Made by a program: the position numbers and the translations under genes
Virus record (IMG/VR): IMGVR_UViG_2870479586_000005
DNA: 42,950 nucleotides
Strand: one strand, 5' to 3'
From: a virus
Taxonomy: Duplodnaviria; Heunggongvirae; Uroviricota; Caudoviricetes
Notes under the pieces: model-generated
What the model saw: only the letters and a program-made list of their open reading frames with translations
The model's database searches: none
Told to the model about the DNA's origin: nothing
Part shown: positions 23,376-35,786 of the stretch, piece by piece
Position numbering within the stretch: the stretch's first letter is position 1
Layout: every line of letters starts with the position of its first letter

Positions 23376-24017
23376 TTATTTATCACTCCTGTAAATTGAA
23401 ATTAACCATTTTCTAATCGTCGACGCTGCAGGTGGGTCAGAGTATTTCGCCACAAAAATACCGGATATGTATTGCACACCACGCGATAATGGCGCTGTCG
23501 GGTTTTCAGTAAAAAAACGATCAGCCAGTTCAATGGCTTCGCTTTTTAATCTGTGCTGTGGCCGTCCTCCGCCCTTAGTGCCAAGGTAACGCGCCAGTTG
23601 TTTGAAACGGTAGGCGATGATTAACGGTCGCATCATCATATTGAAAAAATCTCGGGCATCGTTGTCAGCGCCTTGCGCTATCAACAGTGCAAAAAACAGA
23701 TACGGGATTGTGTACACTTCAGGAGATATACGAACCCGTTCACAAGTTGGTGGAGCCAACTCAATAAGTAAGTCAGCCAGCGGATCCCCCTTTTCTCCAT
23801 GTTTGTAATAGCGATACAGAGGCCCGATATCGAGTTCACTCACGTCAATTTCAGGATGCCCGGCAACGGTTGTACGTATCTCTTCTGCCAGAGCGTCAAA
23901 TATTACCCCGGTCCGCTCAAGATAGAGCCTCCGGGTCGAACCGCGATCATCCAACGCCCGTAACATATCTAACCGGCTTACGAAAGTTTCAGGCCAGTCC
24001 TCATAGAAAGTTTTCAT
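23376..24017 (-). CDS. hypothetical protein (213 aa), accessory island
   Basis: Track ORF 23376-24053; internal ATG at 24017 has a GAGGT Shine-Dalgarno 5 nt upstream, so the upstream extension is probably not translated. Confidence 0.5.
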   Translation of the reverse strand: MKTFYEDWPETFVSRLDMLRALDDRGSTRRLYLERTGVIFDALAEEIRTTVAGHPEIDVSELDIGPLYRYYKHGEKGDPLADLLIELAPPTCERVRISPEVYTIPYLFFALLIAQGADNDARDFFNMMMRPLIIAYRFKQLARYLGTKGGGRPQHRLKSEAIELADRFFTENPTAPLSRGVQYISGIFVAKYSDPPAASTIRKWLISIYRSDK

Positions 24018-24088
24018 AATTACCTCGAATAATAAAAACTGCATTATTTGCACAATTTATTATTCGTTTTCACATCGCAGGGTTCTAT

Positions 24089-24115
24089 AAAAAAGAAAAC
24101 CCGCCGAAGCGGGTT
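24089..24115 (-). terminator. rho-independent terminator
   Basis: Hairpin AACCCGC-CGAA-GCGGGTT followed on the minus strand by TTTCTTTTT, 20 bp after the stop of the 92-aa gene. Confidence 0.55.
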
Positions 24116-24135
24116 AGTTAATAAGTTACACCAGG

Positions 24136-24414
24136 TTATGAGGCCATACCGTAAGCTTTTTTATGCATCCCATGGTCATAGCCCATATTATATGCTTCAA
24201 AAGCATCTTTATGACGGACATGCCCAGCCTGGCTTTCGGGTAAATCACCTAAAACAGAGTCATCAACCGCACGCGGAACGCCGATTAATGCATGCCACAT
24301 ACCTTTATCATAGGCACATCCACAACACTTGTGCCGCCCAACGTTACCCTGATTTGCAGAAAGAACATCAAACATACTGTCGTGACGATGTGACTTTTTA
24401 CAGATGTGTTTCAT
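24136..24414 (-). CDS. hypothetical Cys/His-rich small protein
   Basis: 92-aa ORF (CKKSHRHD...HKCCGCAYDKGMWH...) with its own downstream terminator; weak Shine-Dalgarno. Confidence 0.35.
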   Translation of the reverse strand: MKHICKKSHRHDSMFDVLSANQGNVGRHKCCGCAYDKGMWHALIGVPRAVDDSVLGDLPESQAGHVRHKDAFEAYNMGYDHGMHKKAYGMAS

Positions 24415-24882
24415 TCATTGACCTATATCATTTTCGGTAATGAATGCTTTACACGGGATCCCGGTTGAGGTAATCTCCCAAACCGAGATCTCAACGAAAG
24501 CATTAACCGATGTTTTTGTATGGCCCTGACAGTTGGCGCTGTCAGGGCTTTCCCTTTGATGCGACTCTAAAAACTTCGCAACCTCCAGATCCTATCCAGG
24601 ACCAAGAAAAACTTCAATGAAAAGATCAAGTTAGATCTGTATTTTTTTACAGATGTAATAAATCACACATGTAATAGCCTTCCCTTTCCGTTCTCATCTG
24701 GCCTCTTGTGGCATCCATTTTTTTAAGAAACATATGGACGCCTAAAAAACCACTAATGTCATGATTATCATGTATGTTTTTACTGGAAACATTGAGCCAT
24801 CCACAATGCAGCGTAAAAAGCAAGCAATTCACAAGATTTTAAAGTGATTTATCTGGAAGACTTTACTACTAACAGTTAATAT

Positions 24883-24927
24883 CGTACCAGAAGTGCAGAA
24901 TTTGCACTTTCACAGGAAAGTGGTACG
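24883..24927. promoter_or_regulatory. nested palindrome / candidate operator upstream of the peptidase gene
   Basis: CGTACCA (24883-24889) pairs with TGGTACG (24921-24927); AGTGCA (24892-24897) pairs with TGCACT (24903-24908); lies 55-100 bp upstream of the ATG at 24982. Confidence 0.4.
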
Positions 24928-24981
24928 GAACATGTTGTCTATATTTCGACCAACAATCGTAATGCAGTAACTGGAGGAGCT

Positions 24982-25470
24982 ATGGCTACCAACCCAAGAG
25001 AGCACGCCCGGCGAGTGCTGGACACGTTCTGGTGCGGGCGTGGTTTCCCTGTTGATCCAGCGAAAATTGCTCACGACATGGGATTAGATGTTTTTATTAC
25101 CGATCTTCCTGGGAAAGTTTCTGGCGCACTGATTAAACAAAAAGATCAAGATCCAGCGATCTTTCTAAACAGTGATGACAACAAAGTTCGTCAACGTTTT
25201 TCATGTGGGCATGAGTTGGGGCATTACATCGCCCGGCAAGCATCGCATAGTGATGAATATGAGTACGTTGATTTACGTGGCGAAACCGCAAGCGCCGGAA
25301 CGCATCCTGATGAAATTTTTGCGAACAAGTTCGCAGCAGAACTTCTGATGCCGGTTGATGAGGTCAGAAAACTGCACGCTGACGGCCAACCAAGTTATAT
25401 AATGGCGCATTATTTTGGCGTATCTGACGATGCGATGACTTATCGTTTAAAGAACTTGAGGTTGGGGTAA
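24982..25470 (+). CDS. ImmA/IrrE-family Zn metallopeptidase (HExxH)
   Basis: 162-aa ORF; HELGHY motif within a DUF955/ImmA-like context; GGAGGA Shine-Dalgarno upstream. Confidence 0.75.
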   Translation: MATNPREHARRVLDTFWCGRGFPVDPAKIAHDMGLDVFITDLPGKVSGALIKQKDQDPAIFLNSDDNKVRQRFSCGHELGHYIARQASHSDEYEYVDLRGETASAGTHPDEIFANKFAAELLMPVDEVRKLHADGQPSYIMAHYFGVSDDAMTYRLKNLRLG

Positions 25471-25479
25471 CGCTTTAGA

Positions 25480-26085
25480 ATGCCATCGGATGACGATTTT
25501 AACAGCCGTTTCAAACAGGAAGTTGCACGCCGACTGAAGGATTCCCTCAACCTACACCGTCAGTTAGCAGAAGAGGTTGAGCCGGAGGACGATGAAACTC
25601 CGGTTCAGTCCCCTGATGAAACTTCACCTCTGCAAAAGATTTCGCACGACCCCAAAAAACCATCTGTCCGTATTCACGGAATAGCCAGAAAAAGAGCTGC
25701 CGAAGCTCGCAAAATGGCTGTAGCTGCGTCTAGCAAAAGAACTCCAACTGCTACACCATCTCAACAAGTCACCCGTACTGAGAGTAAAATCTTGACCGAG
25801 TTCACATCTGTGAAACAGGTGAGTTCACTTGATACCGAGCATGAGCGCAAACAACTCAACAACAAAGATTTTGAAGCTGAAATCGCTCTAAAAAAACGCT
25901 ACGGAAAATGGTTCCTGATAATCCTTGCTTGCCAACTTCTGATAATGAATGGGGTATTTATTGCCGACGGCGCAGGTAAGCTGGAATTTGAGGATTTAAC
26001 ACTACAGTTGTACATGGGCGGTACTTTGACAGAGGTATTCGGCCTCGTGCTGGTCGTGACAAAATACCTTTTTAAACGCAAGTAA
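25480..26085 (+). CDS. membrane protein with charged N-terminal region and two C-terminal TM helices
   Basis: 201-aa ORF starting 10 bp after the peptidase stop; C-terminus WFLIILACQLLIMNGVFIA and GGTLTEVFGLVLVVTKYLF are hydrophobic helices. Confidence 0.65.
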   Translation: MPSDDDFNSRFKQEVARRLKDSLNLHRQLAEEVEPEDDETPVQSPDETSPLQKISHDPKKPSVRIHGIARKRAAEARKMAVAASSKRTPTATPSQQVTRTESKILTEFTSVKQVSSLDTEHERKQLNNKDFEAEIALKKRYGKWFLIILACQLLIMNGVFIADGAGKLEFEDLTLQLYMGGTLTEVFGLVLVVTKYLFKRK

Positions 26086-26509
26086 CTCTCTCGGTCCAAC
26101 AGTCTTTCGAAAGCCCTGATCAAAGGGCCTTGATAAATTAGCAGTGCGTTGAAAACAGATAGTTATTCCCATCAGTTCCAACGTAATACACATCAAAAAA
26201 ATCACCATTCTTTTGCTCTACGTCAACACCTACCCTTAAAAAAATAATTCTCCAAGAATGAGAAAGTTATTGTGTGTATTAGATAAGATATGAGCTGACA
26301 CATCTATGGCGTGGAGCCAAACCTAATATGACAGTCCGCTCTGTGCCAAGAGCGAACATTACAAACACACTAAAATTTATGTTTGTACTTCGCTGTAGCC
26401 ACCTAAAAGTATTATTGCGGGTGGTTTCGTGACAATGTTAGATATTCTTCATTTTGAATTGATTACTGAATTAAGATAAAACCACCCGAATTAAAACTAT
26501 CAAAAGTAT

Positions 26510-27391
26510 CTATGGTTGTTCATCACTCTCTTCTGAAAGTATTTGTACTACTTGTCCACACTCTCCACATACTACGTGTAATTGACTATCTTCTTCGGAC
26601 TTGAAAATCTCACTAACTAAGCTATGACAGTTAGGGCATTTTATCTCGTTATCAAAACCTATGAATTTAAGGAATAAGTTTTGAATTAATGAAACTGCAG
26701 TGCAAGTGAGTATAAGGCAAATTTTAGCGTCAGGAATGTTTTTGTTTGAAGAGTGCACCGTCTCTGCGGAAAAATCCCATGCAGACTCAATCGTTGAGCG
26801 GCAATATTTTCTGAGACTTGAGTTTCGTTTTCCTGCGGCATACAACCCAATAATAATTCGGCAAATATTTTTAAAGTCAGCTGCTTTAATATTTTCTTTT
26901 TTTAATATATCCTCATGAGTTTTATAAAGGTGAGCAGCAAGCTCAACCATGCTCTCTCTACAAGTTAGTCCAATACTTTGAATATCTTCAGGGGCCTTAA
27001 TATTATTCAGAGCAACAGCAGAAGCATTTAACCTCCGGCTAATAGAACGAAGCATATCTATATCTAAAGGTAACTCATCAATAACATGTTTGAAATCATT
27101 GCTATGTCTTGCTTGTAGTCTTTGAGTTATACCCAAATGAAAAGAATATGCTTCATCAGCAGAAAAGAAAAACTCATTTTGAGTGTATAAGTTTAAAGGA
27201 ACGTTTTCACCTTCAGCAACCCACCAGTTACCATCATTTTTTGTTCTGACGTTCCAAATGTTAACCTCAAAACCTAAATCATTAAATGTTTGCTCAACTT
27301 GCATGTTTTTTATGTTTTCTATATTTTGAGTTTTTAAATATTCAGTAATTCTTTTCTCAGCATCGATTCTGTATTCTGGTGTCATGTGCAA
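26510..27391 (-). CDS. hypothetical protein with C-terminal zinc ribbon
   Basis: 293-aa ORF in AT-rich DNA; C-terminal CPNC...CGEC four-Cys motif. Confidence 0.55.
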   Translation of the reverse strand: MHMTPEYRIDAEKRITEYLKTQNIENIKNMQVEQTFNDLGFEVNIWNVRTKNDGNWWVAEGENVPLNLYTQNEFFFSADEAYSFHLGITQRLQARHSNDFKHVIDELPLDIDMLRSISRRLNASAVALNNIKAPEDIQSIGLTCRESMVELAAHLYKTHEDILKKENIKAADFKNICRIIIGLYAAGKRNSSLRKYCRSTIESAWDFSAETVHSSNKNIPDAKICLILTCTAVSLIQNLFLKFIGFDNEIKCPNCHSLVSEIFKSEEDSQLHVVCGECGQVVQILSEESDEQP

Positions 27392-27449
27392 TCCCTTTTA
27401 ATAAGATACTAAAAGTAAAAGCGCATTATAGCATAACACATACAATGCG

Positions 27450-27695
27450 TTAATGCGTATGCTTGTGCCCTGTAATGATTTCAAAATGAACGTTTGCATA
27501 CAACTGTTTTTTGATCTGGTTGTATTGCAACAGAATGATTTCCACTGCTCGTTCATAGCTGATCTTCAGTTTAGTTAGCATGTCCGTTCTGTGCCTTTTA
27601 AGTTCATTCTTGCCATACTTAGCCGACTTGAATGCTATTTCTTCTATCACTTTTTTAGTTGGCATATTGGGGCTAGAGTTCCGTTCCTCGCTCAC
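27450..27695 (-). CDS. small hypothetical protein
   Basis: 81-aa ORF (GTG start in track) just upstream of the 293-aa gene; start uncertain. Confidence 0.3.
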   Translation of the reverse strand: MSEERNSSPNMPTKKVIEEIAFKSAKYGKNELKRHRTDMLTKLKISYERAVEIILLQYNQIKKQLYANVHFEIITGHKHTH

Positions 27696-27862
27696 GGCAG
27701 ACCTTAAGCTCAGTTAGTTCGTCTGCTCCGTGCCAGAGCGAACGTTGTAAACACAACATTGCTTTAGTCGACAGGGGCCAATAGGCTACTGCGTACCCTG
27801 TGCTAGAGTAAGTATCAAATAGGTATTATCCATGTATATGACTGCTCGATGATGCATCATAA

Positions 27863-28942
27863 TCACAAACGTTCATGATCAAGACTGTTTTCATCATTAT
27901 TTAAGTCATTAAGCATTTGAAGTGCGTCACGAGTACGTTCATAATTACTTTCAGGGTATAATCTAAACTTCATATTTTCCAAATTAATTAATTTTCTTTT
28001 TAATTTGAAGGAATCGTTAGAAAGTGACATTTCGTAAAAATCAATATCCCCCTGTCTGGATTGTAATGCACTCATAACGGAAAACTTAGCAGATTCTTTG
28101 AACCTCAAACCGAATGTAACATCGCTTAACCGAAATGGTGAGTTCTGTAAACCTTGATTATTAATAACTCGATATTCATTTTCATATTTCCAAGAAGGAG
28201 CTTTGCTGAGAAGAATGACCCTATCAATCTCTTTTTTGGCAGTATTCTTTATATTATCATTGCTGCCAAATAACATATCATGAACTTGTTGAGTTCTAAT
28301 AAATCGATTCCCTTTGTAATCAACTGGATGGATATCTAAAGAGTCATTTTCAGAAGTATCATATCCAATACAAAATCCCTTATGTTGATCAGCATAATGC
28401 GACCACATTAAGGGGCAGTTAAATTTTCTTGCTAATGAAAGAACACCAACCTCATAATTTTTTAGCAAGTATCTTTTAATATAAAAACTGGCGCTAGCAT
28501 AAAAATCATCACCATAATTATCAACATCCCACGAAATATTATCAATTAATTTTCGAGCTTCGCTTTCACCTAGCATTTCAATTTTCTCTAATGTCCTTAG
28601 ACCTTTATATTTAATTTTTTTTGCTGCTTTCGCTAGTTCCTTTTGATGATTTTCTTTTACTAATTTATGAAGGATAGAGTTCAATTCATTGACATTATTG
28701 ATGTCGTTTAACACGGAAGGATTACAATCCAAAGGGTCATTGAATGTTGTTGGATCAGCAAAATACAGTCTATCGCTTACAAGCAAGTCAAGACTATCAA
28801 CACTAAAGCTTTTATATTTATATAATCGAGAGGGAATATTCTGTATCATCACTTTTATCTCATAAATTTTTTTGATATTATCTGCCAATTCTAGCCCCAT
28901 GGGCAATAGCAAAATCGAAAAATACTCTCTACGTAAGGGCAA
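27863..28942 (-). CDS. DUF2971-like protein (candidate defence-associated)
   Basis: 359-aa ORF in AT-rich DNA; RLYKYKSF...LYFADPTTFNDPLDC...PLMWSHYADQHKGFCIGYD...KYENEYRV motifs recalled as DUF2971 hallmarks; start may be at an internal Met. Confidence 0.5.
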   Translation of the reverse strand: MPLRREYFSILLLPMGLELADNIKKIYEIKVMIQNIPSRLYKYKSFSVDSLDLLVSDRLYFADPTTFNDPLDCNPSVLNDINNVNELNSILHKLVKENHQKELAKAAKKIKYKGLRTLEKIEMLGESEARKLIDNISWDVDNYGDDFYASASFYIKRYLLKNYEVGVLSLARKFNCPLMWSHYADQHKGFCIGYDTSENDSLDIHPVDYKGNRFIRTQQVHDMLFGSNDNIKNTAKKEIDRVILLSKAPSWKYENEYRVINNQGLQNSPFRLSDVTFGLRFKESAKFSVMSALQSRQGDIDFYEMSLSNDSFKLKRKLINLENMKFRLYPESNYERTRDALQMLNDLNNDENSLDHERL

Positions 28943-29514
28943 GCCCTTTCCCCATGGATATTCATCAAATTAAGCGGGTGTACTTAGGTCATATTGACCT
29001 GTTCCTAATTGACGATACACCTCGATGTTCATTAAGCCACTTAGAGTGCTGAGACAGATATGAACTGCAGCTTTTCGCTCACTGCTGCCCTTCAGTAAGC
29101 GAAAAAATGCCTACTCGGTGCCATATACAGTCATGGTTATTAACTACAGGGAATAATTCCACACTGAAATTAAATGTCTGCCTTTTACAGTAGAAATAGT
29201 TTCTCCAGGACACTATCCATTGCCGGGCACAATCACTCGGGGTATAACGATATAAAATATGTTCATGATAGTGCAGGTTCGTATATTAAGTTCAGCAGCG
29301 AAAACATGCCTTACAGGTTTCCGGTTTTGGGAGCGTCGTTACAGGATCCTGCGCATACCGTTCCCATCTGTTGAATTAAAGGTTTCACAGCCTTTGCCGA
29401 TATCGCCTTTTACCTTGCCTGTGATGCGTTCAGTGCTCAGCGTTGTTTACTGTAGCTCTCGGAACTGATTACAGACCGCGTCTTAAAAACCAATCCTTAC
29501 TCTAAAGGGAATTC

Positions 29515-30438
29515 ATGAGATTAAAATACTCAGTACTCTTACTCGCCATTGCCCTTACAGGCTGTGATAACAAAAAAGATGAGATCGGTTGTTCTTCGGA
29601 AATGACCCAATCAGCTCTCATGGATTTATTAAAAAAATCTGCTTATGAAGGACTCTCTGAACAGGTCGATAAATACCCTGATGTCACTAATCAGACCAAA
29701 CGAAGCACACTGGACAAGATCAAACTAGCCGTCTCTGAAATCTCCACAACATCAAGTGACACGGGCAGCACAATGAAAACTTGTGAAGGGACCGTGACGA
29801 TGACTCTACCTGCGAACGAGTACGTCCAGCTTTCAGATGCTTACAGAAAGAATTTTAATCGTAATCTCGACAAGCAAATGGAAAGCCTGTTTTTGGAGAA
29901 CAACGCAAACGCCTTTTCCAAACGTATCACCTACACCGTGCAGGCGACCGACGATCAGAAAAACGTTTTTGTAAAAACCTCTTCTGATAATCCGATATCA
30001 GTGGGCGCCGCTTTACTGACATCACTTTCTATTATCAACCCGATCGTTGAGCAGCAGAAAATCCAGCAGGCTAAGGATGCCCAACAGAGCCAAATTGAAG
30101 CGGAACAACAGGTGCAACTCAGGGCGCAGGAACAGGCTAAGTATGAGGCGGAGAAGCAAATAGAGAGACAGGCACAACTTCAGCCACAAAAAGCTGACAG
30201 CCTTGATCAGTCCCGAATGGCATTTGCGAATGCCGACTCTGATTTGAGTACCGTCTGGAGCAAGTTAACCCCGGCGAAGAAAAAAGATTTGCTGCCTTCT
30301 CAGCGTCAGTGGATCAAAACTAAGGATGCTATGTGCGGTAAAGTTTCAATGCAGGGAACAGATGCTGAAGTCAAGAAAATGCTCGACTGCCAGACGCAAA
30401 TGACCCTTTCAAGAATCGCTTTCCTCAGAAACCAATAA
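29515..30438 (+). CDS. lipoprotein with C-terminal LprI/DUF1311-like domain
   Basis: 307-aa ORF; signal peptide plus lipobox (LLLAIALTGC); Gln-rich coiled region; C-terminal QRQWIKTKDAMCG...KMLDCQT...RIAFL resembles lysozyme-inhibitor LprI-type domains. Confidence 0.65.
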   Translation: MRLKYSVLLLAIALTGCDNKKDEIGCSSEMTQSALMDLLKKSAYEGLSEQVDKYPDVTNQTKRSTLDKIKLAVSEISTTSSDTGSTMKTCEGTVTMTLPANEYVQLSDAYRKNFNRNLDKQMESLFLENNANAFSKRITYTVQATDDQKNVFVKTSSDNPISVGAALLTSLSIINPIVEQQKIQQAKDAQQSQIEAEQQVQLRAQEQAKYEAEKQIERQAQLQPQKADSLDQSRMAFANADSDLSTVWSKLTPAKKKDLLPSQRQWIKTKDAMCGKVSMQGTDAEVKKMLDCQTQMTLSRIAFLRNQ

Positions 30439-30458
30439 CTGAAGTTTCCTTCAAGCTG

Positions 30459-30492
30459 GCGCCAGGTGTTAACCTGGTGCCAGCTTAGTCAT
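30459..30492. other. strong stem-loop downstream of the lipoprotein gene
   Basis: AGCTGGCGCCAGG-tgttaa-CCTGGTGCCAGCT, 13-bp arms with one mismatch; not followed by a clear U-tract. Confidence 0.5.
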
Positions 30493-30515
30493 CAAGTGCA
30501 TATTTAACTGTTTTA

Positions 30516-30588
30516 TATGGGCGGTACTTTGACAGAGGTATTCGGTCTCGTGCTGGTCGTGGTCAAATACCTTTTTAAACGCAAATAG
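30516..30588 (+). repeat. orphan direct repeat duplicating the 3' end of the membrane-protein gene (26011-26085)
   Basis: About 73 bp near-identical to 26011-26085, including the stop region, but with no gene body upstream. Confidence 0.8.
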
Positions 30589-30612
30589 AGTATTTCCACC
30601 CCAAACAACCTG

Positions 30613-31401
30613 TCAAAATGCTGAATCAGCAACAGATACAGCCGACTTTTTCCCCATTACCATCAATTTATCCAGTGTCATACTTCGCAGATTGTCGCTG
30701 TGGATCACCAGATACCCTGCCCGCTCAGCGATCTCTTTGAAAGCGTCAAAGGTCATCAGATGTTCGCCTTTGGCAACATGGCGCATCCTTGTCACTTTTC
30801 CATTTTTGATAGTGGTGATAAAAGAAAAATCCGGAATGGTTGGCTGATTTTCATCGAGTAGCAGGCAGTGGATGTATTCAATCGCCTCTAACATTTGCGT
30901 CTGTGACAGTTGTTCTATGTGAGAGACGGCGAAGCGTTGATGAATCATGGTGTAGGCATCGGGATACATCATGCCTTTCTTACCGACCAGCATATTAACG
31001 GCATCACGTAAGGGAGTACGGTCATCGGTAGTTGTACTCCGCCTCTCTGGGCGCTGGCTAAAATAACAATCTTCAAGCTTTTCGAAAACTTCCCAAGCCT
31101 GTTCTGTTTCCAGCATTTTGGCATGGCGAGCTGCGCCGCGTTCTGTCCAGAGAATGAGGGATCGGGTATGTTTAGCAACTGACTGACTATCTGTCAGTCT
31201 GTTTTTGAAGTCGCGTAATTCATTACCTTCCAGCTTAAAAAAATGCTTTCCTACGACAAATCTGGCGATGTTGCGCTTGAAGTTTTGCTGGATACCATTT
31301 ACTTCCGTGCCATACAAACTGGCAAGCAATTCAGTAGTGATGACGGGAAGTTGGTTATGATGTAGCGGAGAAAGGGATTCCGCAGATATTTGGATTGTCA
31401 T
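30613..31401 (-). CDS. phage antirepressor (AntA/ORF6N-type N-terminus)
   Basis: Track ORF 30613-31449; ATG at 31401 has a GAGG Shine-Dalgarno; antirepressor-like character judged from recall. Confidence 0.6.
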   Translation of the reverse strand: MTIQISAESLSPLHHNQLPVITTELLASLYGTEVNGIQQNFKRNIARFVVGKHFFKLEGNELRDFKNRLTDSQSVAKHTRSLILWTERGAARHAKMLETEQAWEVFEKLEDCYFSQRPERRSTTTDDRTPLRDAVNMLVGKKGMMYPDAYTMIHQRFAVSHIEQLSQTQMLEAIEYIHCLLLDENQPTIPDFSFITTIKNGKVTRMRHVAKGEHLMTFDAFKEIAERAGYLVIHSDNLRSMTLDKLMVMGKKSAVSVADSAF

Positions 31402-33297: not shown

Positions 33298-34689
33298 TTA
33301 AAATGGGTCCGTATTAAAGTTTTTGTTTGAATACCGTTTTTCACGTTTTCTCGGTTGCTCTGCCTCCTTCTGGATGCGTAATTTTTCGCGTGCTACGTGT
33401 TGATCAACTGGCAGGAAATGCCCATTCCGGAATTCCTGATAAATAATTTCACCTGCCCCGCCAGAACGGTTTTTACCGATAATCACCTCGGCGATACCCT
33501 TTGCAGGTGAATCAGGTGTGTAAACTTCATCGCGGTACAAAAACAAAATGCTGTCAGCGTCCTGCTCAACACTGCCGGAATCGCGCAGGTCCGACATCAC
33601 CGGGCGACGCTGGCCAGCAGGTCGAGAATCCACCTGGCGGGAAAGCTGGCTAAGAGCAAAAACAGGGGTATGCAGACGCATGGCCATAGTCTTCATGTTG
33701 CGGGAGATATGCCCGACAGCGAGATCGTGGCGCTCGGCCTTCGGTTTTTTGATCAGGCCCATGTAATCAACACCAATCAACTTCAGGTGCGGATAACGGC
33801 GTTTATGAGTCTCTGCAATGGCGCGGATCTGCTCAATCGTCAAATCAGTGGCATCAACAATCCAGATATCGCGATCCTGCATGATTGCAAGCGCGGCGGT
33901 TAATCTGGTCAAATCCTCATCGTCCATTTCTTTTGGATTACGCAGACGCGACGTGGACATATTCCCAGCCCCGGCAACGGTACGTTCAACAATCTGCTGA
34001 GCGCCCATTTCCATGCTGAAAAACAGTGCGCCGCCGCCATCTGCGGTAACGCCATCGATAATCTTCAGGGTAAATTCCGTTTTCCCCATGCCTGGACGAC
34101 CGGCAACCACAACAAGGTCGGTCATGTTGATACCGCCCAGGGCGACATCCAGATCCTCGACTCCGGTTTTCAGCATCATTTCCTGCGCGTCGCCAGACAT
34201 CCGTTTATCAACGGTGTCAATGTAGAGCGGTAACAGCTCTTTGATGTGTACCGGCTGGACTGTGCCGGTAGCGGCGCTCATATCCAGCACCTGAGCAACA
34301 TGAGATTCAATAACCTCATCACGCTGACTCTGGTTTACAGCGTTACGGATACCATCCGCGCCAGATTGCAACAATGCCGCCATTTTGCGGCTCCGCCATG
34401 CCCGCACCATTTTCCCGGCATAGCCTTTCAGATTCGGTACCGTTGCCGGGATCCGGGATATTTGAGACAGATCCGCAAGGCTGGAACCGCCCAGCGCTTC
34501 GCTGATAAACAACATGTCGATCATGCCGTTCGCCAGTGCCTGCTTTTTGATTTCGCTGAAAGCGCGACGGTGAAACACGATGCTGAAGGCTTCCTCCGGA
34601 GTAGTGGCAATCACATCAAACGCGTCAGGCGTCGCGCCACCGTTAATCAGACCAGCGAGAACGATCGCTTCCAGTTCTTCTGGATTCAT
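33298..34689 (-). CDS. replicative DNA helicase (DnaB-like)
   Basis: 463-aa ORF; Walker A GRPGMGKT, Walker B-like IWIVD context, DnaB-type C-terminal motifs; follows the O-like gene. Confidence 0.85.
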   Translation of the reverse strand: MNPEELEAIVLAGLINGGATPDAFDVIATTPEEAFSIVFHRRAFSEIKKQALANGMIDMLFISEALGGSSLADLSQISRIPATVPNLKGYAGKMVRAWRSRKMAALLQSGADGIRNAVNQSQRDEVIESHVAQVLDMSAATGTVQPVHIKELLPLYIDTVDKRMSGDAQEMMLKTGVEDLDVALGGINMTDLVVVAGRPGMGKTEFTLKIIDGVTADGGGALFFSMEMGAQQIVERTVAGAGNMSTSRLRNPKEMDDEDLTRLTAALAIMQDRDIWIVDATDLTIEQIRAIAETHKRRYPHLKLIGVDYMGLIKKPKAERHDLAVGHISRNMKTMAMRLHTPVFALSQLSRQVDSRPAGQRRPVMSDLRDSGSVEQDADSILFLYRDEVYTPDSPAKGIAEVIIGKNRSGGAGEIIYQEFRNGHFLPVDQHVAREKLRIQKEAEQPRKREKRYSNKNFNTDPF

Positions 34690-35786
34690 AATGCCCCTTC
34701 CCTGGTTTTACGCAGTGTTTCTGGCTTCATCAGGTAATCAAACCCTGCCCGCCAGCCGGTGCGATATTCGCCGCCGAAATAGAAGTCTGGGGCGTTATCG
34801 CGGAATTTTTCGAAGTAGCCGATAAATGCGCCAAGAGTTTGCGTGCGCATATGTGCCAGCAGGCGCAGGATTGCCCGACGGCGGTCAGTATCAATTTCAG
34901 CTATAGGTAGCAGGTCGCCCAGAATCTCGTTGTAGCCCTTCACAACTTCAGCAGGGTCAACGGCAGCCTCAGCAGTGGCCCACGTCTCAGCGTCAGCCAG
35001 GTATCCGTCAAACCGGTTTACGCGGCAAATGTTCGCAGGTTTCGGAACGCTTCCGCTACGACGGCGCCATGTCGCAATAACCCAACGAATTACTAACTGA
35101 ATCTCAGCCACGCTGTAACCAGCGCGGGTGGTGGTGGCAGTTAGCAGCATGACAAACGGTTTAACGTCGCGGCAGCGGGTACCGACTTTCTCGTTGTAGT
35201 AGTTCAGAGCTTTTTGAGCGTCAGCGAGAATGATTTCCTCGCCCTCCCCCTTTTGGGGGTAAGGGGGATCTTTTATCTCTGTAGTACTCTCTGTTGTATT
35301 CTCTGTAGGAGATTGGGTCATTTTGACCTTAGCGCATGGGTCAACTTGACCTGATGCTTGGGTCACATTGACCTCTTCGATTGGGTCAACTTGACCTAAT
35401 CGATTGGCCACAGGGAATGTTGTCTCTTCAATCTTACATAACTGGGCATAATTGATTGAATACCACTTGGTTTTATCCCAGGCATCACTGTTAAAGTTCC
35501 CAGTAAGCAACACATTCAATTTTTCCAGATTGGCCAACACGCGTTTTATTGTCGACTCGCTCCAGAACGGGAATTGTTCTTGCCAGTCGGTCACACTGTT
35601 GTACACCCAGTGGCGATTTTCGAAGAAATTTTGAGACGAATTCAGCCAGTAGTGGATTTGCTGTAGAACGATGGCTTCATTCAACCCTATAGTGCATGCC
35701 AACGTGGGCAGGACCTGAAGGGGGTTTTCGTTAATCAGCAAACGACTCATACTCAGATCTCCAGAGCTTCGGCTATCTGACGACAA
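34686..35786 (-). CDS. replication initiation protein (lambda O-like) containing the origin iterons
   Basis: 366-aa ORF; four iterons lie inside the coding sequence (each translated as the GQVDP repeat), as in lambda O/ori; coupled to the helicase gene. Confidence 0.6.
   Translation of the reverse strand: MSSDSRSSGDLSMSRLLINENPLQVLPTLACTIGLNEAIVLQQIHYWLNSSQNFFENRHWVYNSVTDWQEQFPFWSESTIKRVLANLEKLNVLLTGNFNSDAWDKTKWYSINYAQLCKIEETTFPVANRLGQVDPIEEVNVTQASGQVDPCAKVKMTQSPTENTTESTTEIKDPPYPQKGEGEEIILADAQKALNYYNEKVGTRCRDVKPFVMLLTATTTRAGYSVAEIQLVIRWVIATWRRRSGSVPKPANICRVNRFDGYLADAETWATAEAAVDPAEVVKGYNEILGDLLPIAEIDTDRRRAILRLLAHMRTQTLGAFIGYFEKFRDNAPDFYFGGEYRTGWRAGFDYLMKPETLRKTREGAL
35331..35418. repeat. origin iterons (4 copies of an 18-19-bp palindromic unit)
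   Basis: TTGGGTCAACTTGACCT-like units, each an inverted repeat GGGTCA-N2-4-TGACC; adjacent 3x TCTCTGT(A/T)G direct repeat at 35276-35311. Confidence 0.7.

Follow-up and report, generated by a model that had tools for sequence, protein, structure and literature searches.

The question raised by this locus is what two imperfect direct repeats, here called A and B, are doing on either side of two open reading frames of 81 and 293 aa in a stretch of prophage DNA of 42,950 nt (the window, meaning the whole stretch that was analysed). The original prediction took the repeats and the two frames together for a mobile or co-regulated two-gene unit. Behind it stands a wider question, namely how defence and accessory genes move so fast between the fixed hotspots of unrelated mobile elements.

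The claimed similarity of the two repeats is real. In the local alignment of 26331-26370 with 27711-27752 the two sequences (GTCCGCTCTGTGCCAAGAGCGAACATTACAAAC and GTCTGCTCCGTGCC-AGAGCGAACGTTGTAAAC) share 28 of 33 positions and need a single gap. When repeat A was scanned across the whole window the score was 23 at repeat B, well above shuffled windows (maximum 16 over 30 shuffles), and 14 at the runner-up position; an ungapped pattern search with 3 mismatches overlooks A solely through the 1-nt indel. Each copy also contains the short inverted repeat that had been described, GTCCGCTC (26334-26341) pairing with GAGCGAAC (26350-26357) in A and GTCTGCTC (27721-27728) pairing with GAGCGAAC (27736-27743) in B, and a second small inverted repeat follows directly 3' in both (TACAAACA..TGTTTGTA in A, GTTGT..ACAAC in B). 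The DNA hairpins predicted on folding are modest (-5.4 to -6.3 kcal/mol for A, z about -2). The two repeats do bracket both reading frames.

Beyond these two copies a larger element became apparent, of which B is the 3' third and of which the window holds two further, decayed copies. It is built from a 24-bp site in which two inverted arms, GTCCGCT and AGCGGAC, surround an asymmetric centre, and this site exists in two versions. Site 2, to which both A and B belong, has the consensus GTCCGCTC-YGTGCCAR-GAGCGGAC and the centre C-TGTGCC. In site 1 the site is inverted and has another centre (G-TGAGCG in reverse complement); read as the reverse complement, its consensus agrees with that of site 2 in 21 of the 24 bases, the three mismatches all lying in the centre. 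The composite element of about 68 nt is made up of a site 1, a linker of 18 nt and a site 2. The features of the region, in window coordinates, are as follows.

26265..26333, plus strand: backbone flank ('landing pad'), directly left of the solo site 2.
26334..26357, plus strand: core of repeat A, a solo site 2 (nhmmer model positions 43-69, fold and homology ends), with left arm GTCCGCTC at 26334-26341, spacer TGTGCCAA at 26342-26349 and right arm GAGCGAAC at 26350-26357.
26510..27385, minus strand: 291-aa gene, whose homologues begin at MTPEY.
27425..27453, minus strand: predicted sigma-70-like promoter of the 291-aa gene (TTAACG, 17 nt, TG-TATAAT; 10 of 12 matches).
27450..27695, minus strand: 81-aa ORF, an orphan judged to be no real gene, starting in B and crossing B'.
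27540..27596, plus strand: B', a decayed full element (nhmmer E=3e-7).
27679..27743, plus strand: B, a full element of about 68 nt (nhmmer E=8e-20).
27863..28900, minus strand: DUF2971 gene of the neighbouring cassette (PADLOC candidate family PDC-S31).
29067..29132, plus strand: R, a decayed element closing the variable region on the right, beyond the neighbouring 359-aa gene.

These features lie in a lambdoid prophage hotspot situated between the ImmA/201-aa genes and an LprI-family gene, which in the window holds two cassettes, one with the 291-aa gene (26358 to about 27560) and one with the DUF2971/PDC-S31 gene (about 27744-29075). Element B consists of site 1 (27679-27702), the linker CCTTAAGCTCAGTTAGTTC and site 2 (27721-27743); the repeat B first noticed is this site 2 with its 3' flank. 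In B' a site 1 (TTCCACTG-CTCGTTCA-TAGCTGA) and a linker are followed by the left arm and spacer of a site 2 whose right arm has been lost, and R retains the site 1 spacer TTCGCTCA (29074-29081) and the site 2 spacer GGTGCCA (29117-29123), after which comes the backbone arm TATACAGTC. What was read as the 81-aa ORF is the collapsed remnant between both cassettes. Since A and site 2 of B are directly repeated, recombination between them could in principle excise the intervening DNA.

The limits of homology to other genomes fall within these sites. The flank at 26265..26333 is identical in an Escherichia coli ST131 prophage (L001), and copies with about 75% identity border the G-FI cargo hotspot of a P2-like phage on its left and occur in Stx-converting phages as well. 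Compared with L001, homology ends at 26348, in the centre of site 2, and resumes at 29075, in the centre of site 1; the first of these limits was placed at 26348 by megablast and at 26357 by blastn. Repeat A is a hybrid site, its left arm and spacer being common to the prophage backbone of other strains and its right arm going with the cargo. In another locus (L059) homology picks up again at the site 2 centre of R, and further breakpoints were located at model positions 8-10, 23-24, 41-43, 52-57 and 65-69. Moreover, the chromosome of a Providencia strain (L062) is 87.7% identical over 26324-27559, a segment limited by site 2 and site 1; at its far end the 291-aa gene cassette stops at site 1 of B'. 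The repeats do therefore bound a mobile unit, as had been proposed, since the cassette recurs in this chromosome with homology stopping at both sites. The same prophage hotspot is occupied by at least four different cargos, but, as a point against exchange at these sites, a synthetic junction of left and right backbone, representing the unoccupied hotspot, was matched without interruption neither among 5,426 complete E. coli genomes nor among the phages; the phage-collection search brought up the P2-like and Stx phage copies instead. Breakpoints were also seen at arm edges and not in centres alone, in a sample of about 12 independent junctions, for which reason short-homology recombination is a further possible account of them.

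The element was found in more than 20 genera, mostly Enterobacterales, on phages, plasmids and chromosomes, the profile search having added copies elsewhere in the window, in islands of E. coli and on plasmids. Element B matched 414 E. coli genomes and 33 plasmids, each E. coli genome having no more than 1-2 detectable copies, and scanning a single genome of each species for the pattern yielded 27 loci from about 15 genera. Copies form arrays with a spacing of 0.45-3.4 kb and separate cassettes of 0.5-3.5 kb, with adjacent copies on the same strand in 34 of 35 pairs. The cassette genes sit between site 2 and site 1 and thus have inverted, non-identical flanks, and the arrays start with a lone site 2 and finish with a lone site 1. 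Most cassettes have a single gene, with ORFs in both orientations, and the cargo comprises defence, resistance and detoxification genes (the named defence families PD-T7-1 and PD-T7-5 as PADLOC matches in E. coli array cassettes; also Mrr_cat, ArsB, APH(6) and more). In the P2-like phage a lone site 2 and a lone site 1 flank the cargo at the G-FI hotspot. The repeat is therefore not private to the module; it is widespread and non-specific, but as a generic cassette-boundary element it is not irrelevant to it either. No description of the element was found in the open-access literature by sequence, protein accession or concept, and a 24-bp palindromic site marking the edges of swappable cassettes is apparently undescribed so far.

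A tyrosine recombinase core site has inverted binding arms around a 6-8 bp asymmetric overlap in which the strands are exchanged, and its cognate recombinase is encoded nearby. The sites described here have two inverted arms around an asymmetric centre, several of the breakpoints are in the centres and a recombinase gene is adjacent in other genomes. This gene, which encodes a 200-aa PF00589 protein, lies between site 1-like and site 2-like sequences in E. coli, Cedecea, Hafnia, Citrobacter, a MAG, Proteus and marine ICE-like loci, and at these loci the gene-proximal arms are constant and the outer arms variable. Identity of the homologues to the first sequence ranges from 77 to 95%, with the catalytic residues R51, K79, R151, H174 and Y183 invariant and H148 nearly so (Arg in one of 22 homologues). 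One representative is WP_023147793 (L002), and arrays occur together with the recombinase in E. coli SCEC020001, E. coli WP8-S17-ESBL-12 and Proteus strains (L045-L048). The protein matches PF00589 only, reaching 46 bits on the XerA / integron-integrase model against a cut-off of 220, and had no sequence-level relatives among solved structures. Judging from sequence and gene arrangement, the sites are probably cut and rejoined by this recombinase. The arms of the element are conserved by sequence without significant compensatory covariation, neither of two alternative folds (two hairpins or one long hairpin) convincingly beating shuffles, and this fits protein binding without proving it.

We favour, with moderate confidence, the reading that A and B, like the other copies, represent a recombination site bounding exchangeable cassettes, the 200-aa enzyme being the inferred agent of exchange. 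Consisting of a catalytic domain only, the recombinase would exchange strands within the site centres, and like would pair with like, site 2 with site 2 only and site 1 with site 1 only. A crossover at one kind of site and then at the other kind would swap the cargo between replicons, the outcome being a natural counterpart of recombinase-mediated cassette exchange. Against this reading, no recombinase of this family is encoded in the 42,950 nt of the window and its sites are partly decayed; here they are most likely scars of past exchanges, possibly still usable in trans.

An unlikely alternative is that the elements are passive conserved linkers over whose 24-68 bp the cassettes are shuffled by RecA or by Red/RecET-like homologous recombination, the small recombinase gene being just another cargo. 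Similar proposals exist for the boundary sequences of lambdoid phages and for the PeSL elements of T4-type phages. The breakpoints at several positions of the element would be expected under such shuffling, as would the conservation of all 68 nt, linker included, and a window that lacks the recombinase. However, the layout is that of a textbook tyrosine-recombinase core site, with inverted arms around an asymmetric centre of 7-8 nt, and the two site versions differ in the centre alone. The recombinase gene, moreover, is always placed exactly between site 1 and site 2, with hybrid outer arms and across bacterial orders, and RecA-dependent exchange between replicons that are otherwise unrelated would have very little to work with in 24 bp.

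It is improbable that the element is a repeat of the MITE or REP/ERIC kind, which would insert independently, work through RNA as a terminator, an attenuator or a hairpin that stabilises mRNA, and be found at cassette edges incidentally. It is true that it is intergenic, palindromic and widespread, and that the consensus has a good single-stranded fold (-20.1 kcal/mol, z -5.4). Against this, a repeat of that kind would have to be reconciled with the very low copy number per E. coli genome, the orientation common to nearly all neighbouring copies, the half-sites at array ends and the homology breaks within the element. In addition, covariation was not significant, Rfam gave no match at E<=1 for positions 24000-31000 and no intrinsic terminator (hairpin plus T-run) was present at any repeat copy.

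Narrower identities were also considered and rejected. A terminator shared by morons was discarded because the hairpin plus T-run is missing at every copy. A sigma-54 promoter is suggested by TGGCAC-N5 on the minus strand, but the -12 TTGC element is lacking, as judged by eye. The string GTGAGCGAGG, which we take to resemble part of ERIC, led to an ERIC/IRU repeat being considered; it was dropped in view of the 1-2 copies per genome and the differing remainder of the sequence. A tRNA or tmRNA fragment serving as att site was rejected since the window has no tRNA genes.

The reading closest to the original prediction, in which a dedicated mobile or co-regulated unit of the 81-aa and 293-aa genes has the repeats as its own private ends (att sites or target duplications), is very improbable and already largely refuted. 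Two direct repeats bracketing both ORFs are what such a unit would show, but the repeat stands beside unrelated genes in the many genera mentioned, and the conserved mobile unit stops at 27559, which leaves out most of the 81-aa ORF. This ORF has its GTG start inside element B and continues through B'. Among 5.8 billion proteins it had no homologues apart from the same locus, tblastn against homologous loci likewise returned only the same locus, and its product had no PADLOC match. It is missing upstream of the 293-aa gene in Pectobacterium, Klebsiella, Vibrio and other loci, and gene callers mostly omit it in other assemblies of the same prophage. As a partner gene it was rejected on the homologue searches, and we judge that it is not a real gene. 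The 293-aa gene, in turn, has its own sigma-70-like promoter, and the dedicated or co-regulated pair is not supported. Scarcely credible, finally, is an integron attC cluster without integrase that is served by IntI elsewhere: arrays of mostly single-gene cassettes with imperfect palindromes of 60-80 nt between them, often flanked as ..AAY / GTCCGC...GCGGAC / RTT.., do recall one, but the sequence is conserved across genera beyond structure (mean column identity 75%), the RYYYAAC/GTTRRRY consensus is missing, the ORFs run in both orientations from their own promoters, the 200-aa recombinase falls far below the integron-integrase cut-off (46 vs 220 bits) and the crossovers are at internal centres, not at an outer GTT.

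Returning to the cassette-exchange reading, the cargo bounded by A and B' can be described more closely. The 293-aa ORF begins at TTG 27391, and with the start shared by its homologues (MTPEY) the protein has 291 aa. It comprises an N-terminal alpha/beta domain, a HEPN-like helical core and a C-terminal CPxC...CxxC zinc ribbon with the cysteines C250, C253, C273 and C276. The core has the four-helix fold of HEPN domains and lacks their catalytic Rx4-6H motif, there being no Arg 4-6 residues ahead of the invariant His; invariant in it are R143, E144, K167, D170, R192, W203, H211 and N216. No family match was obtained in Pfam, NCBIfam and PADLOC, and among solved structures the sequence-level relatives were weak zinc-ribbon matches only. 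Of the homologues in other genera, most have the gene alone, without recognisable flanking sites, which speaks against the exchange reading. We take the gene for a self-contained, self-promoted cargo and probably an anti-phage effector, a role that is plausible from its context and from a fold match that lacks the canonical motif. The neighbouring DUF2971 gene matches PDC-S31 at 1e-50.

Taken as a whole, the observations may point to a new cassette-exchange system across the Gammaproteobacteria, in which a mini-recombinase and an inverted pair of 24-bp sites with incompatible centres would move the cargo; this broader proposal is tentative and we place it slightly short of even. If true, it would carry defence, resistance and detoxification genes among lambdoid and P2-like phages, ICE-like elements, plasmids and chromosomes, and it would be the missing mechanism for the rapid swapping at phage defence hotspots. 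A short conserved site pair at the cargo edges together with a dedicated mini-recombinase is a concrete and testable mechanism. The sites would serve as a sequence tag for new cargo genes, such as that of the 291-aa protein, would allow cassettes to be delimited to single nucleotides and possibly provide a compact (200 aa) natural tool for cassette exchange.

Several known systems resemble this arrangement in part. Sites of the dif type have a XerC arm, a 6-bp spacer and a XerD arm, and are served by the host XerC/XerD. In the dif modules of Acinetobacter, accessory modules with resistance, toxin-antitoxin and detoxification cargo lie between short sites of alternating orientation, with inverse flanks and two alternating 'phases', and exchange is thought to pass through a cointegrate that forms at one site and is resolved at a different one (PMC13141974). 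The arrays described here (site 2, cargo, site 1, linker or int gene, site 2) likewise have inversely oriented alternating sites and mixed resistance and detoxification cargo in discrete modules. They differ in the identical inverted arms, unlike those of E. coli dif (compared by eye), in the two site versions with differing centres and in the embedded gene for a dedicated 200-aa recombinase in place of reliance on host XerC/XerD. Moreover, the hosts are mostly Enterobacterales and other Gammaproteobacteria, and the carriers are prophages, P2-like phages, ICE-like elements, chromosomes and plasmids rather than Rep_3/OrfX plasmids.

With integrons they share arrays of small, mostly single-gene cassettes, imperfect palindromes, a presumed tyrosine recombinase as engine and a cargo enriched in defence and resistance genes. 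However, the sites are sequence-conserved cores of the duplex type and not single-strand hairpins specified by structure, each cassette has two unlike flanking sites, and the genes run in both orientations with promoters of their own, where integron cassettes are promoterless and co-oriented. IntI is absent from the window and the loci, attI and Pc are lacking, and the R''/R' box consensus of attC (RYYYAAC...GTTRRRY) was not in the flanks, which have partial AAY/RTT only.

The 7-bp core of the sfx sites of the R64 shufflon is GTGCCAA (PMC5430464; PMC11852207). This string equals the site 2 centre GTGCCA(A/G), which may be coincidence. The conserved 12-bp right arm of sfx, TCCGGTNNGTGG, is absent here, and neither Rci nor pilV is present in the window. 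Rci, at 384 aa, is larger, has an extra C-terminal domain and inverts pilV segments instead of exchanging cassettes.

The accessory and defence hotspots of phages also have fixed positions in temperate phages and rapidly swapped, self-promoted genes, and the one P2-like phage examined has the same sites at its G-FI hotspot. According to a survey from 2026 that covered P2 and P4 hotspots in the thousands, transposable elements were almost absent, homologous recombination was hard to square with exchange between different element types, and the hotspots were defined by flanking core genes with the mechanism of exchange left open (PMC13586616). The published descriptions there differ from ours in reporting no boundary sites or dedicated recombinase. 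Finally, engineered recombinase-mediated cassette exchange with heterospecific lox or FRT sites is a laboratory design, whereas here a natural arrangement with an uncharacterised enzyme would be at work; the two have in common the shared arms, the incompatible centres and the flanked cargo, which a double crossover would swap and which would not be excisable by a single intramolecular event.

Repeats A and B had originally been predicted to be imperfect direct repeats of about 35 bp, with hairpin potential, that bracket a mobile or co-regulated two-gene unit. Their similarity was confirmed (28 of 33 positions identical, with one gap), as was the 8-bp inverted repeat that each copy forms around a loop containing GTGCCA. 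When repeat A was scanned over the window it scored 23 at B and 14 at the next best position, and shuffled windows gave at most 16. The search for further copies, with a profile from six copies, found two more in the window, and repeat A proved to be only the 3' third of an element of about 68 nt.

Features of the window
26331-26370: repeat A, a lone site 2 of the element
27453-27425: promoter-like site of the 291-aa gene (minus strand)
27541-27595: B', a decayed copy of the element within the 81-aa ORF
27711-27752: repeat B, the site 2 of full element B
29070-29123: weak copy (right element), right edge of the variable region

The element comprises site 1 (consensus GTCCGCT-CCTCGCTCAC-AGCGGAC), an 18-nt linker (CTTCAGCTCAGTTAGCTC) and site 2 (GTCCGCTC-TGTGCCAG-GAGCGGAC). 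As the reverse complement of site 1 is identical to site 2 at 21 of 24 positions, ungapped and with all three mismatches central, the element consists of one 24-bp site present twice in opposite orientation; judged from their sequence, the two copies have common arms and unlike centres. The core site of a tyrosine recombinase has inverted arms around an asymmetric centre of 7-8 nt (Cre/lox, FLP/FRT, Xer/dif), and this is the layout that these putative recombination sites display. Pair counts over 29 copies gave 81-86% pairing, and no convincing compensatory change was found in these copies, whether read as two hairpins or as one long hairpin. The arms are conserved as sequence, a pattern that would suit recognition by a protein. 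In a Stx2c-converting phage (L078 4040-4100) site 2 reads GTCTACTC-TGTGCCTG-AAGTAGAT, both arms being altered symmetrically by a change of their central CG to TA, possibly a sign that the recombinase there has a changed specificity.

Comparison of related loci provides evidence that cassettes may move as units delimited by these sites. Homology with the closest E. coli prophage (L001, ST131-type) covers 24720-26357 (to 26348 by megablast) and returns at 29075, so that the variable region begins, on its left, inside repeat A. The cargo swap between the two has its left end in the site 2 centre and its right end in the site 1 centre of the right element. This prophage hotspot holds at least four different cargos, and the right-hand breakpoints of all four lie within or beside the right element.

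Cargos of the prophage hotspot
Cargo 1: this window
Cargo 2: prophage L001, a 232-aa gene
Cargo 3: related prophage L059, a GIY-YIG nuclease set with a full element inside
Cargo 4: L061, a five-gene set with three full elements

In a Providencia chromosome (L062) the 291-aa gene lies between SMR pump genes and ridA/dinG, in DNA that is 87.7% identical to window 26324-27559; homology ends there, the span running from lone site 2 (A) to site 1 of B'. Moreover, in the P2-like Yersinia phage vB_YpM_115 the cargo that separates tail-fibre assembly gene G from sheath gene FI has a perfect lone site 2 as its left border and a lone site 1 as its right border; it consists of genes for a LysR-type regulator and an efflux pump, plus an unknown gene. 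About 60 nt to the left of that site 2 are similar to the left flank in the window, and a variant occurs in Stx-converting phages.

The proposed two-gene unit did not hold, the 81-aa ORF being an orphan and not the partner of the 291-aa gene (293 aa before its start was set from homologues). This ORF was not found upstream of 291-aa homologues elsewhere, starts inside element B, crosses B' in its reading frame and is mostly uncalled in other assemblies of the same prophage. Homologues of the 291-aa protein (57-93% identity) occur in Providencia, Pectobacterium, Dickeya, Klebsiella, Pantoea, Vibrio, Shewanella, Marinobacter, Burkholderia and Pseudomonas, and profile search gave 517 clusters at 50% identity; no match was found among Pfam, NCBIfam and PADLOC families. 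The AlphaFold model (mean pLDDT 79.6) predicts a helical core between an N-terminal alpha/beta domain and a C-terminal zinc ribbon. Neighbours of the homologues include genes for retron-type reverse transcriptases, SIR2, SLATT and Schlafen-AlbA_2 proteins and integrases, and a role in defence is plausible, if tentative. Loci L065-L067 carry a 291-aa homologue which one source names Enterobacter cancerogenus; a Schlafen/AlbA_2-domain gene follows it directly, after a 56-nt gap (L065 5926-7065), and the two may form a two-gene arrangement in this lineage.

The window corresponds to an Escherichia-type lambdoid prophage. Its minus strand carries the early-right genes (DnaB-type helicase, nin-region genes, Q antiterminator), after which come lysis and terminase genes. 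Two tandem 45-nt units (35313-35402), each with TTGGGTCA-N-TTGACC-type motifs, lie within a 366-aa replication-initiator-like ORF (34686-35786) and look like lambdoid origin iterons. The stretch holding repeats A and B has a GC content of 33-37%, against about 50% elsewhere, and has an ImmA/IrrE-201-aa gene pair on one side and an LprI-family gene on the other. The adjoining ImmA/IrrE-type metallopeptidase (24982-25470) matches the PADLOC model capP, a CBASS-associated regulator (2e-25); the next gene encodes the 201-aa protein, which carries a membrane segment at its C-terminus and belongs to no assigned family. A second copy of the 3' end of this gene occurs immediately downstream of the LprI-family gene. 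The resulting 81-nt direct repeat (26004-26084 and 30507-30587, 90% identical) brackets the entire 4.4-kb hotspot and LprI; L001 and L059 have the same duplication. At 28721-28752 (GATTACAATCCAAAGGGTCATTGAATGTTGTT), inside the DUF2971/PDC-S31 gene, 32 of 32 nt agree with a type I-E CRISPR spacer from E. coli OkiPb01700, and AAG, a canonical I-E PAM, precedes this protospacer. A second spacer matches 29515-29546 (ATGAGATTAAAATACTCAGTACTCTTACTCGC), the first 32 nt of the LprI-family gene, at 32 of 32 nt; its flank on the targeted strand is ATG, also a functional I-E PAM, and it occurs in CRISPR arrays of many E. coli genomes (at least 13 among the matches listed). The hotspot has thus been sampled by E. 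coli at least twice.

By blastn, the region around B has unannotated matches of about 70 nt and 80% identity in 414 of 5,426 E. coli genomes, each with 1-2 of them. Matches were also found on 33 plasmids, beside unrelated genes, from Enterobacter, Citrobacter, Pantoea, Lelliottia, Rahnella, Leclercia and Klebsiella. Scanning one genome per species for the pattern gave 27 loci, in Erwinia, Kluyvera, Enterobacter, Citrobacter, Hafnia, Cedecea, Kosakonia, Buttiauxella, Scandinavium, Mangrovibacter and other Enterobacterales, with one each in Pseudomonas and Pseudoalteromonas. Copies form arrays with a spacing of 0.45-3.4 kb, neighbours lying on the same strand in 34 of 35 pairs; typically, a lone site 2 starts the array and a lone site 1 finishes it. 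The intervals contain one or two ORFs each, which may face either way. Cargo with a profile match includes the defence families PD-T7-1 and PD-T7-5, the candidate defence family PDC-S31/DUF2971, a Mrr-type nuclease, ArsB with ArsH, APH(6), GrpB, an acetyltransferase, LysR regulators with reductases and DJ-1/PfpI proteins, besides many unknowns.

In E. coli (two islands), Cedecea, Hafnia, Citrobacter and a MAG, a gene for a 200-aa recombinase, whose sole domain is the Phage_integrase catalytic domain, lies no more than 2-3.5 kb from the element; the proteins from these loci are 89-96% identical. The conserved DNA module of about 698 bp starts at the centre of a site 1-like sequence (..CTCGCTCA TAAGGGAC..) and ends with a site 2-like sequence (..CAGCAGCCC TGTGCCA GAAGCGGAC), so that the recombinase gene takes the place of the 18-nt linker; the outer arms vary between loci. 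The same arrangement surrounds Proteus homologues in four different neighbourhoods, including TIR, SIR2 and SMC-like genes, as well as homologues that marine ICE-like contigs carry between modules for arsenic and copper resistance. Clustering at 90% identity divides the family into at least 8,000 clusters; in 22 diverse members R51, K79, R151, H174 and Y183 are invariant and H148 nearly so. No sequence match was found among solved structures. Directly before the ATG lies a perfect 12-bp inverted repeat whose 3' arm contains GGAG (L002 6990-7045, L004 2817-2869, L045 7940-8000); by analogy with some insertion sequences, this hairpin may hide the ribosome-binding site from read-through transcripts.

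From the sites we infer a cassette exchange in which like would recombine with like, site 2 with site 2 and site 1 with site 1. Two replicons would be fused by a first crossover and then resolved, with their cargo exchanged, by a second one at a site of the other kind, while the incompatible centres would block inversion or loss of cargo through a single event. [quoted passage not shown] The like-with-like exchange would have parallels in engineered cassette exchange and in the model of cointegrate formation and resolution for Acinetobacter dif modules (PMC13141974).

The searchable open-access literature yielded no account of the element, the recombinase or the accessions, and the authors of a survey of P2/P4 hotspots from September 2026 expressly left the exchange mechanism open (PMC13586616). 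The sfx core of the R64 shufflon is identical to the site 2 centre GTGCCA(A/G) (PMC5430464, PMC11852207), although the sfx arm is absent here. The arrangement is functionally like that of dif modules, but dif-like sites are absent, and more loosely like that of integrons, but there are no IntI and no attC boxes. Given these likenesses, the missing defining features and the lack of a prior description, we rate the element system as a putative new form of site-specific cassette or module system, with a mechanism that is proposed.
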